Of a DNA stretch of 64,000 nucleotides, positions 28,325-63,300 are shown piece by piece. Position 1 is the first letter of the stretch. Each line of letters starts with the position of its first letter. Both the position numbers and the translations under genes were made by a program. Origin of the DNA: an uncultured bacterium (lineage in GTDB: Bacteria; Patescibacteriota; Patescibacteriia; Magasanikbacterales; UBA922); NCBI GenBank assembly GCA_937861125.1, contig CALMAY010000037.1, positions 132,941-196,940 of the forward strand. Direction: 5' to 3'. The notes beneath the pieces are model-generated. The model made no database searches. It was not told the origin of the DNA and saw nothing but the letters and a program-made list of their open reading frames with translations.

Positions 28325-31186
28325 ATGAATGAGCGCGAAGGATATATCGACAGTTTATTCCAGAGATATCGAAGAGAGTTTGAGGAAAGTCGTGACAAGG
28401 CTTCCTTTGTTCGTCATGCAAAAAAATATGTAGATGCAGCGGATGCTGGACAGTTGGGGGCAGGTGTGCATGGAGACCAGGTAGAGGCGACGAGGAGATT
28501 TTTGTCAAGCATCTCTGAAACGGATTTAGAAGTATATCAAACAGAGGCATTATCACGTTTTGTTGATAGGCAGTGGTGGCAGGAGGGCGGAACGGAATAT
28601 AGTAACGACTTTGATATAGATTTGAGTGGTATGGAAAGATTTCCTAAATACGTGTTAGATTTTTTATTGGGCGGCCTATCCATTCCTCTTAAAGAGATTC
28701 TTCATCCTAACTATGATGGAAAGATTACACCAGCACTCCCCGGTCCGTTTATACTGAGAACATTAAATTTATACCAAGAAATGTTTTCCCCTTCAGTAGG
28801 GCAGAAGGTAGATAGTATTCAATTTAATATATCAAAATCTGTTTTAGAAGCTAGTGGTGATGAGCCAGTAGTTAAGTTCCCAGATTCATTAGGTAAAATA
28901 AAATATATTCCAACACCGCATGGATGGATGCCTGTTTGTTCAGAAGAAAGTCTCGGTGTTAGTACGAAAGTCACTTTGGATCCAGAAGATCCACTCAAAC
29001 ATCGTATTAATTGTTATCTCAGTTGTTTGGGTGATATTCAGTTTGTGCGTCATAACGATGTTGATGTGGAGGGGGTGAGGCGATGTGCACCGACCGAAAA
29101 AGAGAAACAATTTTTGTCTCGTATTTGTCCTTTGCCGAAACCTGTGTTGCAAGAAATTGAAAAAGCACCTTCAGATTGTGTCGATATAGTTTTTCGATAT
29201 GTTACCGATAGGTTTCAATACGTAGTCCATAGTGGATATCGTGCACTTTTAAATGAGTTTTCAGGCGATATTCCGCTTATTGTCAATGAACTTGGAATTG
29301 GGCACTGTGCATTGATTGCACACATGTCAGTGATGTATTTACGTCAAGTTGGTGTGTCAGCTGTAATGATTGATGAACTGCCAACTAATGGCGACGGAAC
29401 TCAATTTAGGGCAATCAGTCATGTTTCTGTTGGTATTTATGATACTAATGGTTTGAATCGGCATAATCCAACGAACGATTGTATATTTAATAGAGCACTG
29501 TGTCAGCCGTATTTTCCAGATGATGAGTATACAGTTTTGGCAACTCAATTACGTGCTGCAACAAGTATTGAACAAAAAAGAATAATTCTGCAATCGTTTA
29601 CACAAATACTTGCAAAATATACCAAGGAGCTTGGAAAAGATGAACCAACATCCCAGTTGAGAGGTTTGCTAGAAGGTTTAGCGGACGAGTCAGTTCTTGT
29701 GTGGACAGAAGTATCTCGTTATTTGTATTCTAATTGGGATGGGGGAGATGAATATTACACAGTTCCAAATGATGAGTATCTACCGGTAGAGCACGCTTTT
29801 TATAGACGCTTGTATGAGGTATTCAGAAAAAAAAGAAGTTCTCAATTACTTAACATCCTTATTTGTTCTTGTTTTTATAAACATATTTGTAAGGTGCATG
29901 TAGATGGACAGAAAGAAAATGATAAAAAAACACAAGAGGATTCGCCTTATTTACTTGATTATAGTTATGCCTTTTATTCATTTTATGCCCGACTTGCTCC
30001 ACAAGAAGTAGAAAAGCTTTTTTTAAATGAGTGGAAGACAGGTGAAGATTTGGAAGAGTATATAAAAGATACCCTTGGAGATATAAGAACCTTGGGAGGT
30101 ACTTTGAATATGGATGTGCGAGATTTTGGTCCCCCGATAGAATCTTTTTTATTTTCTGCCACTGCGAAAAAACGTATAACAAAACTTTTGGCCATGCACC
30201 CTACGTTGTGGGATTCATGTTTGAAAACATGGAATGCAAAACATAGAGATGCTGATTTGGCCATAGAAATTGAATTACATTTTTTTATCAATCTGTGTGC
30301 TCGAGCGCTCTCCGACAAGGCAAAGCGAGAAAAAATTGAACGACAATTCGCTGTATCAGAGAATTTTTGGAAAGAACTTGCTGAAACAATTGAGCCTAAG
30401 TTAAAGCATCCTATGGTGGTGCATCATGATAAAAAACTATCGATTTCTGTTTTAACAGAGGAAGATAAACAGCTGGTCAAACAAGAAAGTTCACAGCCAG
30501 AAAATTTTACGTACGTCACCGAAGATATTATTCGTACTTCAAGAATTGTCGAGCAGTTTCTATCAGCGATCAGATATCAAAGCAGGGCTAAACAACCCGA
30601 ACGTGGGTATATAACAGAGCCGTACGATCCATATGCACACGATGTGCGTGATATTAATTGGGGTATATTGGCAAAGACTGGATTAGTTATGGCACGTAGA
30701 AAAGAATCAGAACTAAGTGAACAAAAATCATTATGTGTTTTTATTGATTCTGATATTGCAGATACTGTCGAGATTGCCATGGGGACACTCAGAGGTATTT
30801 TATTAGGTATACAGAAATTTGCAAAGCAGACAAATACGACAGTATATATCAGTGGTGCAGGGTTTGATGCATTTGTTCGTTTGCCAACTGATGTAAAGCA
30901 TAACACTATGTTAGCGCGTGTGCTAATGAGGGGTGTTAGACCTAATGCGGGCAATTTTCGTTTTGGTTTTCGTCCCACGACTGAAACAAGATCGATGCCA
31001 CTTGTGTATGTGTCAGCAAATGAGGGACGTATGGCAGCTGTAGCTTCGCAGTTACCAAAATCTACTCTTCAAACGATGAACACGCGTGCGCTTGATTTAG
31101 ATGTGCATCCGCTGTTGTCTGATGCCACACGTCTAACAGACCGGTCTGTGGTGTATAGGCCTCTTCATCTTTCGCAGACAGTGTGA
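28325..31186 (+). CDS. large cytosolic protein with transglutaminase-like core and DUF58/vWA-like C-terminal region
   Basis: GIGHCALIAHMSVMYLRQVGVSAVMI...ISHVSVGIYD...HNPTND resembles a Cys-His-Asp/Asn transglutaminase core. EPYDPYAHDVRDINWGILAKTGLVMARRKESE...LCVFIDSD resembles the DUF58 signature. Confidence 0.5.
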   Translation: MNEREGYIDSLFQRYRREFEESRDKASFVRHAKKYVDAADAGQLGAGVHGDQVEATRRFLSSISETDLEVYQTEALSRFVDRQWWQEGGTEYSNDFDIDLSGMERFPKYVLDFLLGGLSIPLKEILHPNYDGKITPALPGPFILRTLNLYQEMFSPSVGQKVDSIQFNISKSVLEASGDEPVVKFPDSLGKIKYIPTPHGWMPVCSEESLGVSTKVTLDPEDPLKHRINCYLSCLGDIQFVRHNDVDVEGVRRCAPTEKEKQFLSRICPLPKPVLQEIEKAPSDCVDIVFRYVTDRFQYVVHSGYRALLNEFSGDIPLIVNELGIGHCALIAHMSVMYLRQVGVSAVMIDELPTNGDGTQFRAISHVSVGIYDTNGLNRHNPTNDCIFNRALCQPYFPDDEYTVLATQLRAATSIEQKRIILQSFTQILAKYTKELGKDEPTSQLRGLLEGLADESVLVWTEVSRYLYSNWDGGDEYYTVPNDEYLPVEHAFYRRLYEVFRKKRSSQLLNILICSCFYKHICKVHVDGQKENDKKTQEDSPYLLDYSYAFYSFYARLAPQEVEKLFLNEWKTGEDLEEYIKDTLGDIRTLGGTLNMDVRDFGPPIESFLFSATAKKRITKLLAMHPTLWDSCLKTWNAKHRDADLAIEIELHFFINLCARALSDKAKREKIERQFAVSENFWKELAETIEPKLKHPMVVHHDKKLSISVLTEEDKQLVKQESSQPENFTYVTEDIIRTSRIVEQFLSAIRYQSRAKQPERGYITEPYDPYAHDVRDINWGILAKTGLVMARRKESELSEQKSLCVFIDSDIADTVEIAMGTLRGILLGIQKFAKQTNTTVYISGAGFDAFVRLPTDVKHNTMLARVLMRGVRPNAGNFRFGFRPTTETRSMPLVYVSANEGRMAAVASQLPKSTLQTMNTRALDLDVHPLLSDATRLTDRSVVYRPLHLSQTV

Positions 31187-31242
31187 AGTATATGTACGCT
31201 ATGTAGATTAAAAAACATTGTTACATAAAGTGAGCAGAGAAT

Positions 31243-31272
31243 AAAACCAACCAGTAATGTGGTTGGTTTTTT
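31243..31272 (+). terminator. intrinsic terminator after the 953-aa gene
   Basis: AAAACCAACC / GGTTGGTTTT 10-bp stem followed by TT. Confidence 0.65.
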
Positions 31273-31407
31273 GAAACAAAAAACAGCTTCCAGTATGCCT
31301 CCTACGATTTACATCAAATTATTTGATATGAATCGCAGGGGCTGGAAGCTGTCTTCCGTGTACCCTTCTTGTCTTCATCGATAGATGAAGGTGTGGCGAG
31401 TGCCGTT

Positions 31408-31764
31408 CTATTGACCGGCAGCGACTTGGTAAACGCCGTTGTTGCAGTGGGCCATGTCGACGCCGACCGAGTTGGCTGCCGTCATCCAGTCGCCGCCGCT
31501 GACTTGTACCCGGTTGTACCATCCGGAGATGTGCACCAGGTGTCCGCGGTGCGACCAGTAGATCCCGTCCGAGTTGGTTTCGTTTGTGACGCTCGCATCA
31601 TCGAGCTTCCAACACAGCACTGGCTCTCCAGTGTAGTTGTACTGGACGATGATCCAGTCCGCACCGAATCCTCGGGCGATGTCTGATCGACAGCCGCGGG
31701 CAAACCCGTCACAGCCAGCGATCATCAGGGTGAAGATTGCAAGAATCCACAAGTTACGTTTCAT
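31408..31764 (-). CDS. small lipoprotein of unknown family, encoded in a GC-rich island
   Basis: MKRNLWILAIFTLMIAGC lipobox, with AGGAG 8 nt upstream of the ATG. I counted 53-68% G+C per 60-nt line, against ~30-45% in the flanks. Confidence 0.6.
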   Translation of the reverse strand: MKRNLWILAIFTLMIAGCDGFARGCRSDIARGFGADWIIVQYNYTGEPVLCWKLDDASVTNETNSDGIYWSHRGHLVHISGWYNRVQVSGGDWMTAANSVGVDMAHCNNGVYQVAAGQ

Positions 31765-32016
31765 GATGGTCTACTCCTATCCTCTGTATACGGGGAATCC
31801 GTTTTTTTTGCGAGGATAAATAAGTGTAGCAAAGAGAGAGAGTTGTCAAGGTTTACTTGGGGACAAAAATGACCGTAGAGACGCGGCGCTGCCACGTCTC
31901 CGTCGTTGTCTGGTCGGTGCGTAATGGTACGATTGTTTACAAAAATAATTGTGTACAAAATCTTGTTTGTAGATAAAAAGACGGGGTAGCGCCTCGTCTT
32001 TACATATGTGTTTGTG

Positions 32017-32048
32017 TCACGCCTCAGCGGAATTCCGCTGAGGCGTGA
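32017..32048. terminator. perfect palindromic (bidirectional) terminator hairpin
   Basis: TCACGCCTCAGCGG-AATT-CCGCTGAGGCGTGA has 14-bp arms and lies just downstream of the PfkB kinase stop. Confidence 0.65.
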
Positions 32049-53551: not shown

Positions 53552-53648
53552 GATCTCTTTTTTACCTCAAGTTGTATTGGGGTACAAAAGTCATGTCTGC
53601 GGGGTTCCGGGCAGACTCCGGTTGCGCGTGGGCGCCGTTCCCTCCTTG

Positions 53649-54188
53649 TTAGATGCCGGAGGGCACACCCCTATACCCAAAATACAGCAACCCCTTCTGA
53701 CACCCCCCAAGTGTCGTTAGAGATCGCAGATACCTCGGGTAGTTGTGTGTTCCCTCGACGGTTGCGACTAGAAACTGATCGACTTGCTCTGCTTCGAAGT
53801 AATCGAGCAGTGTGGTCGTCAGTAATTGGCCAACTCGACGTCCTCGGAACTCCGATGAGACGCCAAAAAGGGCTTTGTAGCCAATCTTGGTGCCTGTCAG
53901 GAATTCTTGAGGGATGTCGAATTTATTGGCCACTTCTGCGGGTGGACCGACGTATCCGGCGATGAATCCGGCCACACGACCGTCTTCAGTTGCGACGTAC
54001 CACACCATGGTGGGGTCGCTCAGAAGTTGTTGGTCGCGTGCGTCCTGCTCTTCGTCCACTTGCCACGGCGGCTCGTTAAAGACAAGACGCAGGAGTTTCC
54101 TGACTTCGTCGACCATATCGTCGGTCATTTCGACGATTTCCACAAGTCCTCCGTGTTGTGGGGTTATTGTTTTGGTGTAGATCTGCAC
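53649..54188 (-). CDS. GNAT-family N-acetyltransferase in a GC-rich island
   Basis: VAGFIAGY...ALFGVSSEFRGRRVGQLLTTTLLDYF (GNAT motif A). Sampled lines within the island give 62-65% G+C. Confidence 0.65.
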   Translation of the reverse strand: MQIYTKTITPQHGGLVEIVEMTDDMVDEVRKLLRLVFNEPPWQVDEEQDARDQQLLSDPTMVWYVATEDGRVAGFIAGYVGPPAEVANKFDIPQEFLTGTKIGYKALFGVSSEFRGRRVGQLLTTTLLDYFEAEQVDQFLVATVEGTHNYPRYLRSLTTLGGCQKGLLYFGYRGVPSGI

Positions 54189-60366: not shown

Positions 60367-63300
60367 ATGAATACCTTTAAACGAGACACATTGCACCTTT
60401 CAGACTTTGACGCACTGTCATTGTCTGTCGCATCTCCTGAGGTGATCCGCAACTGGTCATTTGGTGAAGTAGACAAACCAGAAACGATTAATTACCGTAC
60501 ACAAAAACCAGAAAAAGGCGGTCTTTTCGCCGAAGAAATTTTTGGACCAACCAAAGATTGGGAATGTTATTGTGGAAAGTACAAAAAAATCCGCTACAAG
60601 GGCATTGTTTGTGACAAGTGTGGTGTGGAAGTCACACACTCACTCGTGCGTCGTGAACGTATGGGTCATATTGAGCTCGCTGCTCCAGTGACACATATCT
60701 GGTTCCTTCGTTCTGTGCCAAGTAAAGTTGGTTTGGTACTCGATCTTTCTATTCAGGCGATTGAAAAAGTGGTGTATTTTGCATCATTCATCATCACGCG
60801 TGTAGATGAAGATCTCAAAAAAGAAACAGCGGAAGCACTCAAAAAAGAGTACAAATCAAAACACGCACAATTGATGAATGAACGTGAGCAAAAAATTGCA
60901 GCAGCAACAAGTGACGCTGCAAAAAAAGAAGCTGCAAACATGGTGGATGAAAAGATTGCAGCACTTGATGAAGATGTGGAAGCAGCAGAAGAGGAGCTCA
61001 AGGATTTGCGTGTCATGAACATTGTTTCAGAAAATCGATACCAAGAGCTCTCACTTCGCTACGGTCACATCTTTGACGCGGAGATTGGTGCTGGTGCGAT
61101 CCACGCACTCTTACAACGTTTGAACCTTGATAAAACAATTGAAGCATTGCAGGTTGAAATTGATAAAAGTAAAGGAGCCAAGAAAGAACGCTTGATTCGT
61201 CGCATGAAAGTGCTCGCAAGTCTCAAGAAAAACAATATCAATCCAGAGTGGATGGTGTTGACCAATATCCCAGTGATTCCACCAGATCTTCGCCCGATGG
61301 TGGCACTTGATGGTGGTCGTTTTGCGACATCAGATCTTAATGATTTGTATCGCCGTGTGATCAATCGCAACAATCGTCTGCGTAGACTTCTGGAGCTCAA
61401 TGCACCTGAAGTGATCACTCGCAATGAAAAACGCATGTTGCAAGAAGCAGTCGATGCACTCATTGACAACAATGCTCGTGCAAGTAAGACAGTGACAGCA
61501 AGTACAGGACAAAAACGTCAGCTCCGTTCACTCGCAGATATTCTCAAAGGTAAACAAGGGCGTTTCCGTCAGAACTTGCTGGGTAAACGTGTAGATTATT
61601 CTGGTCGTTCTGTTATCGTTGTGGGTCCTGAGCTCCACATTGATCAATGTGGTTTACCAAAACGCATGGCACTTGAGCTCTTCAAACCATTTGTCATGGG
61701 TGAAATTATCAAACGTGAACTCGCTCACAATGTGCGCAGCGCTTCTCGCTTTATCGAGAGTAATGCACCTGAGGTCTGGGATATTTTGGAAGAAATTACC
61801 AAACATACTCGCGTGCTCCTCAACCGCGCACCAACATTGCACCGTCTTGGTATCCAGGCATTCCGCCCACTTCTTATTGAGGGAAAAGCGATTCGCTTGC
61901 ACCCACTCGTCTGTCCAGCGTTCAATGCTGACTTTGATGGAGACCAGATGGCGGTACATGTCCCACTCACTGTTGAAGCACGTTGGGAAGCAGAAAACCT
62001 GATGGCAGCGGAGAAAAACTTGCTCAAACCAGCGACAGGAAATCCAGTGGTTACTCCACAGCAGGATATTGCACTTGGTATGTATTACCTCACCAAATAT
62101 GCTGAAGGAGATACTGGTGAAGTAAAAAAGTTCTTTAGTAATATTCGCGATGCAAAATTTGCATACAAAAATCGATACATTAGTCTCAAAGAACGTATCA
62201 AAGTACGCTTTGATGATCTCAGTAAATTCGGAGAGGGAACATACCCAATCATTGAGACCTCGATTGGTCGTATCTTCTTCAACGAAATTTTGCCAAACAA
62301 ACTTCCATACTACAATGAAACAATCACCAAAAAACAAATGGGTGGTATCATTCAGTTCTTGCTCGAAGTTTATGGACAGCAGGAAACTGCAGTAGTACTT
62401 GATAAGATCAAGGCACTTGGTTTCAAATATGTGACTAAGTCTGGATATTCACTCGGTATGGACAACTTTGGACGTATCGATGAAAAGAAGGCTATTGTGG
62501 AAGATGGAGATGCTCAGATTCAGGTGGTAGAAGAACAGTTCCAAGAAGGATTGCTCACTGATTCTGAACGTCACGCCAAAGTGCTTGAAATCTGGACAGA
62601 GGTTAAAGACAAGGTTGTTTCACACAATAAAAAAGTACTCGACAAAGATGGATCAGTATTTGCAATGATTGACTCCGGTGCTCGTGGAAGTTGGGGTCAG
62701 CTCGGTCAGGTTATTGGTATGAAGGGTCTCGTGGCTTCTCCATCTGGAGAAATTATCGAGTTGCCAGTAAAAGGAAACTTCAAAGAAGGATTCCAGGTGC
62801 TTGAGTTCTTTATCAGTAGTCACGGTACACGTAAAGGTTTGTCAGATACTGCGCTTCGTACTGCGAACGCTGGATATTTGACACGTCGTTTGGTTGATGT
62901 GGCACAGGATGTAGTGGTACACACTAATGATTGTGGAGATACAACGGGTGAGCTCTTTACTCGTGCACAATCTGCTGAGCTTGGTCAAACACTCGGCGAA
63001 CGTGTACTTGGACGCTTTGTTATTGCAGATGTTGTAGTAGGCAAAGAAACGATTGTTGGTGCTGGCGAATTTGTCACAGAAGCAATGGCTCGCGCAATTG
63101 AAAAACATCAGGTCAATGAGGTACATGTACGTTCAGTCTTGCAATGTTTGTTACCAAAAGGAGTCTGTACCAAATGTTATGGTGCCGATCTTGGAAACGG
63201 TATGCCTGTCAAAGAGGGTATTGCGGTAGGTGTGATCGCTGCACAGAGTATCGGTGAGCCTGGTACTCAGTTGACGATGCGTACCTTCCACCTTGGAGGT

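Follow-up and report, generated by a model that had tools for sequence, protein, structure and literature searches.

A GC-rich lipoprotein gene in a variable expression slot beside pfkB in a Magasanikbacteria-like Patescibacterium

Can a GC-rich segment of a few hundred nucleotides (nt) in the genome of an uncultured bacterium tell us whether a gene has been transferred, from where and when? We addressed this question on a 64,000-nt stretch of contig CALMAY010000037.1 (GCA_937861125.1, positions 132,941 to 196,940; hereafter the window). An earlier note on this DNA, made from the letters alone, had described a GC-rich island at 31283-31935 that encodes one small lipoprotein, and had read it as a recent horizontal acquisition from a high-GC donor. 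The island lies between two converging genes, pfkB and a gene for a protein of 240 amino acids (aa). We conclude, with a probability of about 0.68, that it consists of one gene exchanged laterally, within a hotspot of recombination in the genome of a Magasanikbacteria-like Patescibacterium. That the gene was acquired is supported, whereas a recent date and a high-GC host as the source are unproven. The interval itself is an expression slot, in which a native insulating hairpin, a promoter with TTGACA and a CT tract, and a long-hairpin terminator enclose a variable cargo.

Composition of the island and comparison with relatives

The GC-rich island proved to be real. The earlier counts of G+C per 60-nt line were reproduced exactly (53, 68, 60, 55, 57 and 60% over 31381-31740, and 62% over 31861-31920), and 31381-31740 is the most GC-rich stretch of the window, with 0.589 against a window mean of 0.421; the highest value of any 360-nt segment outside the island is 0.556. 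Most of the excess sits within the open reading frame (ORF) of the lipoprotein on the minus strand (31408-31764), whose GC is 0.577, with 0.55, 0.45 and 0.73 at the first, second and third codon positions (GC1, GC2 and GC3). Among the 57 non-overlapping ORFs of the window, it ranks first in GC3 (mean 0.383, standard deviation 0.091, z 3.8) and second for atypical synonymous-codon usage (z -2.8). C ends 32 of its 36 two-fold codons with a pyrimidine (Y) at the third position, compared with a mean of 0.45 in co-oriented genes, and the share of G at third positions (G3) is doubled too, at 0.24 versus about 0.11. In its third-position C (C3, 0.49), its G3 and its fraction of C-ending (NNC) codons (0.89), the ORF resembles family members native to genomes of 51-65% GC. 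The choice of arginine and leucine codons was uninformative as a test of foreign origin because the host already favours CGN. In composition and codon usage, the lipoprotein gene deviates from its host and is foreign-like.

A chimeric assembly, which the earlier note had considered, is ruled out. The DNA of the island was also found in ENA ERZ724543 (72-kb contig), ENA ERZ724544 (149-kb contig) and Logan SRR5676446 (18-kb contig), and these three independent assemblies are identical at every shared base. On this identical DNA, one gene caller chose an antisense ORF over the lipoprotein because of the GC-rich composition.

The lipoprotein gene is real and functional. Its ratio of nonsynonymous to synonymous divergence (dN/dS) is 0.18 against its nearest homologue, on a contig designated L003, it has about 300 homologues, and its AlphaFold (AF2) model is confident; the gene is under purifying selection. 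A signal peptide, a lipobox and an invariant cysteine at position 18 (C18) bear out the previous description of a convincing 118-aa lipoprotein, as does the AGGAG ribosome-binding site (RBS) at 31774-31778 on the minus strand, which stands 9 nt before the ATG and is kept as AGGAG in L003. A further ORF of 65 codons (31761-31958) had been called doubtful, and rightly so: it is rejected as a gene, as it runs through the promoter core of the slot and its counterpart in L003 has indels of 2, 4 and 5 nt.

The genome itself is, judged from sequence matches, that of a Magasanikbacteria-like Patescibacterium, belonging to the candidate phyla radiation (CPR), and the best named relatives of its PfkB, at about 50% identity, belong to Candidatus Magasanikbacteria or Patescibacteria. 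The genes leading up to the island encode IleRS, RpiB, Rpe, TrxB, a 107-aa membrane protein and PfkB, and those past it the 240-aa protein, SpoU and a Xer-type recombinase. Relatives were found via PfkB; the product of a neighbouring 953-aa ORF, being without homologues, could not be used as a marker. Five close relatives were compared (L111, JGI 3300055046; L112, SRR27197505; L113-115, SRR2642192x; L119, JGI 3300079086, a 433-kb contig; L120, SRR30597359), together with one distant Magasanikbacterium (L117). PfkB of the close relatives is 77-93% identical to that of the window in amino acids, at a synonymous divergence (dS) of 0.61-0.86 for four of the five and 1.75 for L113, and all six genomes keep the gene order RpiB-Rpe-TrxB-107aa-PfkB-[slot]-240aa-SpoU-Xer.

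The lipoprotein gene is absent from this locus in all six, which answers the presence/absence test that the earlier note had proposed. In DNA alignments, three parts of the window have a counterpart in the relatives: the gene for the 240-aa protein as far as 28310, pfkB from 32053 on, and between them a block of 135 nt within 31227-31367 that is 85-91% identical. The window therefore differs from them in two separate places, namely by the 953-aa gene at 28325-31186 and by the lipoprotein segment from 31366 to about 32052.

An expression slot with variable cargo

Read in the minus-strand sense, the slot consists of a hairpin with a U-run after pfkB, a promoter, a variable segment with one ORF, a long hairpin and a run of six U, and the cargo ORF is co-oriented with the lipoprotein in every slot. 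Six different cargos were found in seven genomes. The cargo or slot segment of the window, with the 118-aa lipoprotein, has a GC of 0.58 versus 0.42 for the locus. The corresponding values are 0.39 versus 0.43 in L111, which carries a 41/49-aa membrane peptide; 0.48 versus 0.445 in L112, with a 75-aa protein that has a signal peptide and a C-terminal transmembrane helix; 0.52 versus 0.40 in L113-115, with a 56-aa hydrophobic ORF; 0.53 versus 0.46 in L119, with a 190-aa weakly NUDIX-like protein; and 0.51 versus 0.46 in L120, with a 153-aa protein without an assigned family. In the distant L117, a RimK-like gene stands between pfkB and a 236-aa homologue of the 240-aa gene. Turnover in the slot is fast, since L111 and L119 carry unlike cargos despite a PfkB dS of only 0.22.

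The 3' boundary of the variable segment is exact to the base. Homology to the gene-less relatives stops exactly at 31365/31367, and the same base (GGGTACAC...), at which the long hairpin starts, marks the boundary in all genomes despite their unlike cargos. This long imperfect hairpin with its U-run (31273-31365, minus strand; arms 31280-31293 and 31342-31355) is the predicted native 3' terminator of the slot. It corresponds to the imperfect palindrome of 70 nt that the earlier note had taken for the left boundary of the island. The palindrome exists, but it is native because it lies inside the 135-nt block conserved in the gene-less relatives. It is present in all five close ones, at an identity of about 90% in L111 and L112 and 85% in L113. 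The fold of 31225-31372 reaches -65 kcal/mol (z -9.95). Across six genomes, 6 of 40 pairs are compensatory, and several others change to wobble pairs that would work on the minus strand only, a pattern consistent with a terminator or 3' structure in the RNA transcribed from the slot. The palindrome, being native, conserved and covarying, was rejected as an island border or att site. No further copy was found in the 64-kb window, nor any in the viral collection. A small plus-strand ORF across it (31259-31384) was rejected as well, as substitutions among the relatives are mostly non-synonymous. The shared block also holds a perfect hairpin with 11-bp arms and a T-run (31243-31270, plus strand), the native terminator of the converging transcription unit of the 240-aa and 953-aa genes.

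On the 5' side, the native promoter core (31827-31849, minus strand) consists of TTGACA as the -35 element, a (CT)5 tract and TTTGCTA. Its exact form is common to L111-L113 and L003, and L119 and L120 retain TTGACA only, with another spacer; no other copy occurs in the window and none in the viral collection. The L111-L113 promoter runs from TTGACA through the CT tract and TTTGC to a TATATT-like -10 element. In the window, the strength of the promoter is uncertain because no more than 15 nt are left by the CT tract before the best -10 hexamer (TACACT). Repeat tracts in the spacer are known from the phase-variable promoters of surface lipoproteins such as vlp of Mycoplasma hyorhinis, and from hif of H. 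influenzae. The present promoter resembles these in having (CT)n between -35 and -10 ahead of a surface lipoprotein, and in that the tract (4-7 units) and the implied spacer (13-19 nt) vary between genomes (the window, L003 and L111-L113). Unlike in those systems, the tract is short, its length is uniform across the three consensus assemblies of the window population, and L119 and L120 have no tract. Between promoter and gene lies a 5' untranslated region (UTR; 31765-31826, minus strand) with a CCUC...GAGG stem, which is homologous to L003, not to the gene-less relatives. The 3' UTR (31366-31407, minus strand) is likewise homologous to L003.

From pfkB to the promoter there are three hairpins in the window and a single one in each relative. 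A hairpin with a U-run comes directly after pfkB in all the relatives, with one sequence common to L111-L113 and L119, and another each in L120 and the window. The second GC patch of the earlier note is a GC-rich hairpin followed by UUUUU (31866-31905, minus strand; arms 31878-31887 and 31891-31900), and it takes the place of a different terminator hairpin that the relatives and L003 carry just upstream of the promoter. A terminator-like hairpin with a U-run downstream of PfkB (31977-32001, minus strand) is absent from the relatives. The third is a perfect 32-nt palindrome just downstream of pfkB (32017-32048), with GAATTC, an EcoRI site, at its centre; the earlier note had located it correctly but had given its arms as 14 instead of 16 nt. 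It has no T-run, and Logan contig SRR5676446_2696 terminates inside it. These three upstream hairpins have no second copy in the window and none in the relatives, the viral collection holds no copy of any palindrome or hairpin of the island, and an Rfam scan of the window returned tRNAs only.

Source and age of the gene

By protein identity, the nearest homologues are those of L003 (70%), L007 (66%) and L004 (57%), in hosts of 37-47% GC. L003 is a 1.5-kb contig (GCA_020049755.1, JAHZTO010593774.1) with the slot unit at 930-1471, and its ORF, promoter core, 5' UTR (including the stem before the RBS) and 3' UTR are homologous to those of the window. Its upstream hairpin is of the lineage's own type, with compensatory changes relative to L112, and the contig stops at "...GAGAAGGG", the point where the native long hairpin begins. 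The L003 unit lies downstream of an epmA-like gene and of efp, which encodes elongation factor P (EF-P), rather than of pfkB, and this position reflects either a rearrangement or a mobile unit. The L003 gene is GC-rich (0.54, GC3 0.66) in a flank of 0.47. Between the two lipoprotein ORFs dS is 1.03, which exceeds the PfkB dS to four of the five gene-less close relatives and is below that to L113. From this divergence and the shared frame, the lipoprotein allele has long been associated with the slot frame of the lineage, and we regard it as belonging to a pool of alleles that members of the lineage exchange. Thus, the earlier claim of a recent horizontal acquisition holds as to acquisition, given the foreign-like composition and the absence at the locus in relatives, but is unproven as to its date.

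The claim of a high-GC donor is unsupported. Neither by phylogeny nor as a near-identical copy was a donor lineage found, since the closest copy is the 70% identical one of L003, from the same lineage. Over 69 family loci with at least 1.5 kb of flank, in hosts with a GC of 0.33-0.69, gene GC follows host GC (r 0.82, slope 0.71). In robust regression, L010, the window, L072/L013 and L011 are positive outliers, and L008, L078, L046 and L075 negative ones. This is the pattern expected if the gene moves occasionally between hosts of unlike GC, and the regressions place the expected source genome at about 0.55-0.57 GC; overall, the composition fits a source of about 52-58%. In addition, the window and L003 were compared at 73 synonymous third positions. 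Two models fitted indistinguishably: neutral decay of GC3 from about 0.87 in the ancestor (support interval 0.7-1.0) and a GC3 stationary at 0.66 (log-likelihoods -73.40 and -73.41). Therefore, acquisition from a GC-richer source with partial amelioration and a maintained GC3 are inseparable with these data. The compositional check proposed earlier confirms the deviation in codon usage and GC3, and selection on GC3, the alternative that the earlier note itself had named, fits the comparison with L003 as well as decay does. A GC island alone can neither date nor source a transfer.

For the lateral exchange that we favour, the gene and its UTRs would have been taken up as DNA and recombined in by way of the conserved slot or the core-gene flanks. 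The immediate source would most likely be another member of the same lineage, and the ultimate source a genome of roughly 52-60% GC, not a very high-GC one, so that the third codon positions would not yet have equilibrated to the 42% GC host. Transcription would begin at the native promoter and translation at the AGGAG site. Several points weigh against this account. No donor was identified, and the closest protein relatives sit in low-GC hosts; the junctions show no mobility gene, direct repeat or att site; no match of fold or family backs the function proposed for the product. A slightly higher GC than in the rest of the genome is seen for most other slot cargos too, which could reflect a local process rather than donor composition. 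Finally, the L003 cassette, with the promoter and UTRs of the same lineage, is GC-rich too at a dS of about 1, so that the GC-richness has lasted long.

The last two of these points, together with the equal fit of the stationary model, are also what one would see if the gene were an old resident of the lineage's slot whose GC3 is kept up by selection or a biased process, and which the relatives have lost or replaced. Examples would be a very highly expressed Lpp-like lipoprotein under translational selection for NNC codons, or a hotspot of recombination with GC-biased repair. The preference for C in two-fold codons would suit such a resident, as would the perfect TTGACA, the strong RBS and the fact that several CPR copies are GC-rich though their nearest protein relatives are low-GC. 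We nevertheless consider it unlikely, though a live rival, as GC-richness is lacking in many family members from low-GC hosts (L004, L007, L031 and L098), G3 is doubled and not C3 alone raised, negative composition outliers exist (L008 and L078), and six relatives are without the gene at the locus. Quite improbable, in our estimate, is delivery by a huge phage as a moron-like unit with its own expression signals. Homologues do occur on phage-like contigs of 200-485 kb, where gene GC matches the contig, and viral mediation of horizontal gene transfer (HGT) in Patescibacteria has been reported (PMC12455944). However, the copies on phage contigs reach an identity of only 38-54%, promoter and terminator were not imported but are native, the gene has no PHROG match, and the flanks are core and syntenic. 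Near the island there are neither phage genes nor att repeats, nor any remnant of an integrase. A prophage moron is likewise unlikely at a site flanked by PfkB, TrxB, Rpe, RpiB, SpoU and Xer without PHROG matches.

We give still less weight to a site-specific, integron- or Xer-like exchange of cassettes at the conserved long hairpin, which seems very improbable. Like an integron cassette, the unit has one ORF of promoterless type, behind it an imperfect palindrome that at about 70 nt is attC-like in size, and a sharp junction shared at one base whatever the cargo. A tyrosine recombinase lies 5 kb away, and a slot unit also stands after EF-P in L003. Unlike an attC site, the hairpin has no R''/R' motifs (RYYYAAC/GTTRRRY), its U-run and wobble pairs suit an RNA terminator, and it occurs once in the window and not at all in the viral collection. 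Moreover, the recombinase scores as XerC/D (about 225 bits, with 119 bits against a cut-off of 265 for the integron-integrase model TIGR02249) and is a conserved core gene in the relatives. An integron gene cassette proper is excluded, as the arms CAGCTTCCAG / CTGGAAGCTG have neither GTTRRRY nor RYYYAAC and there is one slot, with no IntI and no array. A bolder and rather unlikely extension of our account is that the conserved frame with its base-exact boundary is a dedicated "plug-and-play" expression slot or small mobile unit that captures and expresses foreign single genes. The frame follows pfkB in six genomes and efp in L003, and the strength of its promoter might be phase-variable. The lipoprotein would then represent a single allele in a pool of surface or defence cargos that spans the lineage and is shared with huge phages.

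Among known systems, the locus most resembles the chromosomal HGT hotspots between conserved core genes that, reportedly, are filled by homologous recombination after DNA uptake, a concept attributed to Oliveira et al. 2017. Common to both are a fixed interval between syntenic core genes, a different cargo in each relative, the lack of mobility genes and an atypical composition. The host phylum also fits: Saccharibacteria are naturally competent and recombine by homology (PMC10633639), and most individual gene transfers into Patescibacteria stem from other Patescibacteria, some via viruses (PMC12455944). Unlike in such hotspots, the slot keeps a promoter core and a structured terminator, so that an arriving ORF finds its expression frame already in place; the cargo is one small gene, and a second variable position directly adjoins. 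The kind of event, cargo replacement in a hotspot flanked by core genes, is already known, and we regard this case as ordinary though neat, not as a major surprise. Its noteworthy particulars are the conserved promoter and terminator frame with boundaries exact to the base, the speed of turnover, the ORFan position next to the slot and an uncharacterised family that also occurs in huge-phage-like genomes. It provides a base-resolved example of single-gene renewal in streamlined CPR genomes, in which the cargo turns over faster than pfkB gains a dS of 0.2.

The lipoprotein family and further features of the window

The N-terminus of the protein (MKRN, LWILAIFTLM, then IAG before C18) shows a positive n-region, a hydrophobic h-region and a lipobox, as in bacterial lipoprotein signals. 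The product would be exported, lipidated at Cys18, tethered outside the cell membrane and displayed on the surface. We found 296 homologues at E <= 0.01. In an exhaustive profile search of 1.84 billion cluster representatives (50% clustering), 187 representatives were retrieved, nearly all of 90-190 aa. C18 is invariant across 120 family sequences, as are W37, W52, E62, D66, G67, W70, H78, G81-W-Y-N-R85 (GWYNRxQ) and Q87, and C25 and C51 are nearly so. The AF2 model (pLDDT 87) has five strands and a helix after the signal peptide, and the ectodomain is accordingly predicted to be a compact domain of that composition.

The lipoprotein had no match in Pfam, NCBIfam or PHROG. Across the family, weak matches to Pfam LPAM_1 occur in 12 members and to DUF5052 in 23 of 120 (best E 4.7e-4); in the inspected member P0018, the DUF5052 match lies below threshold (12.3 versus 29.4 bits) and covers residues 9-65, signal peptide included. 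Foldseek searches of the model against the PDB and BFVD returned nothing similar (TM-score about 0.3). A profile search of the PDB gave a sub-threshold match to 4csq_A ("uncharacterized protein", E 0.73) that aligns the invariant DW..DG..W..E..DG.W, and this entry is not among the 50 best Foldseek matches listed. A literature search on 4CSQ or DUF5052 found no paper.

Named carriers of the family are Doudnabacteria, Moraniibacteria, a "Patescibacteria group" and metagenome-assembled genomes (MAGs) labelled Gammaproteobacteria and Bdellovibrionales. Other copies lie on IMG/VR contigs of 200-480 kb with dense, small, co-directional ORFs and genes for Ro60/TROVE, TnpB, ThyA and radical-SAM proteins, and one on the 485-kb GenBank "uncultured phage" LR745208.1. 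No recurrent neighbour gene was seen over 42 distinct family loci. Small lipoproteins of phages, such as Llp of T5 and Cor of phi80 and N15, act in superinfection exclusion. The present gene resembles them and phage morons in being a small, solitary lipoprotein gene of deviant GC with its own 5' and 3' signals and with phage-carried family members. Unlike them, it lies outside a prophage and has no sequence, PHROG or fold similarity to any phage lipoprotein, and an exclusion role is putative. Because the distribution of the family is solitary, mobile and phage-associated, our best guess, by analogy with other small solitary phage-carried lipoproteins, is that the product may serve as a surface shield, exclusion or immunity factor. 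The family, with its roughly 300 members and a confident, unmatched fold, is thus a candidate cell-surface factor in interactions between episymbiont, host and phage.

Elsewhere in the family, single-gene GC-rich islands were seen in Doudnabacteria (L010, 4920-5303, where the GC-rich stretch coincides with the ORF as in the window) and in Moraniibacteria MAGs (L013/L072), and AT-rich single-gene islands in L008 (4902-5330) and L078 (1580-1954), both on higher-GC contigs.

The second variable position next to the slot, between the stop of the 240-aa gene and its terminator, is occupied in the window by the 953-aa ORFan (28325-31186, plus strand). This ORF matched only itself among 5.8e9 proteins, apart from a sub-threshold transglutaminase-core match (E 0.014), and its GC3 of 0.29 is below the genome mean. 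The position is empty in L111, L112, L119 and L120, and L113 has a different membrane protein of 161/180 aa there.

Three more ORFs of the window, all on the minus strand, deviate in composition. A second, weaker GC peak at 53581-54180 (0.57 over 240 nt) coincides with the ORF of a 179-aa GNAT acetyltransferase (53649-54188; GC 0.535, GC3 0.59, NNC fraction 0.70), whose codon usage is the third most atypical, and this gene may be another acquired one. The ORFs at 61065-61472 and 62842-63126, which are without a Pfam match, show atypical codon usage or GC3 (z -3.5; GC3 0.705) and may be wrong-frame calls or more foreign genes. Third positions also differ by strand. In the genes checked beside the island, C3 is about 0.09 on the plus strand and about 0.32 on the minus strand, over the whole window NNC codons make up 0.23 and 0.45, respectively, of the two-fold Y-ending codons, and GC skew is positive throughout all 64 kb.

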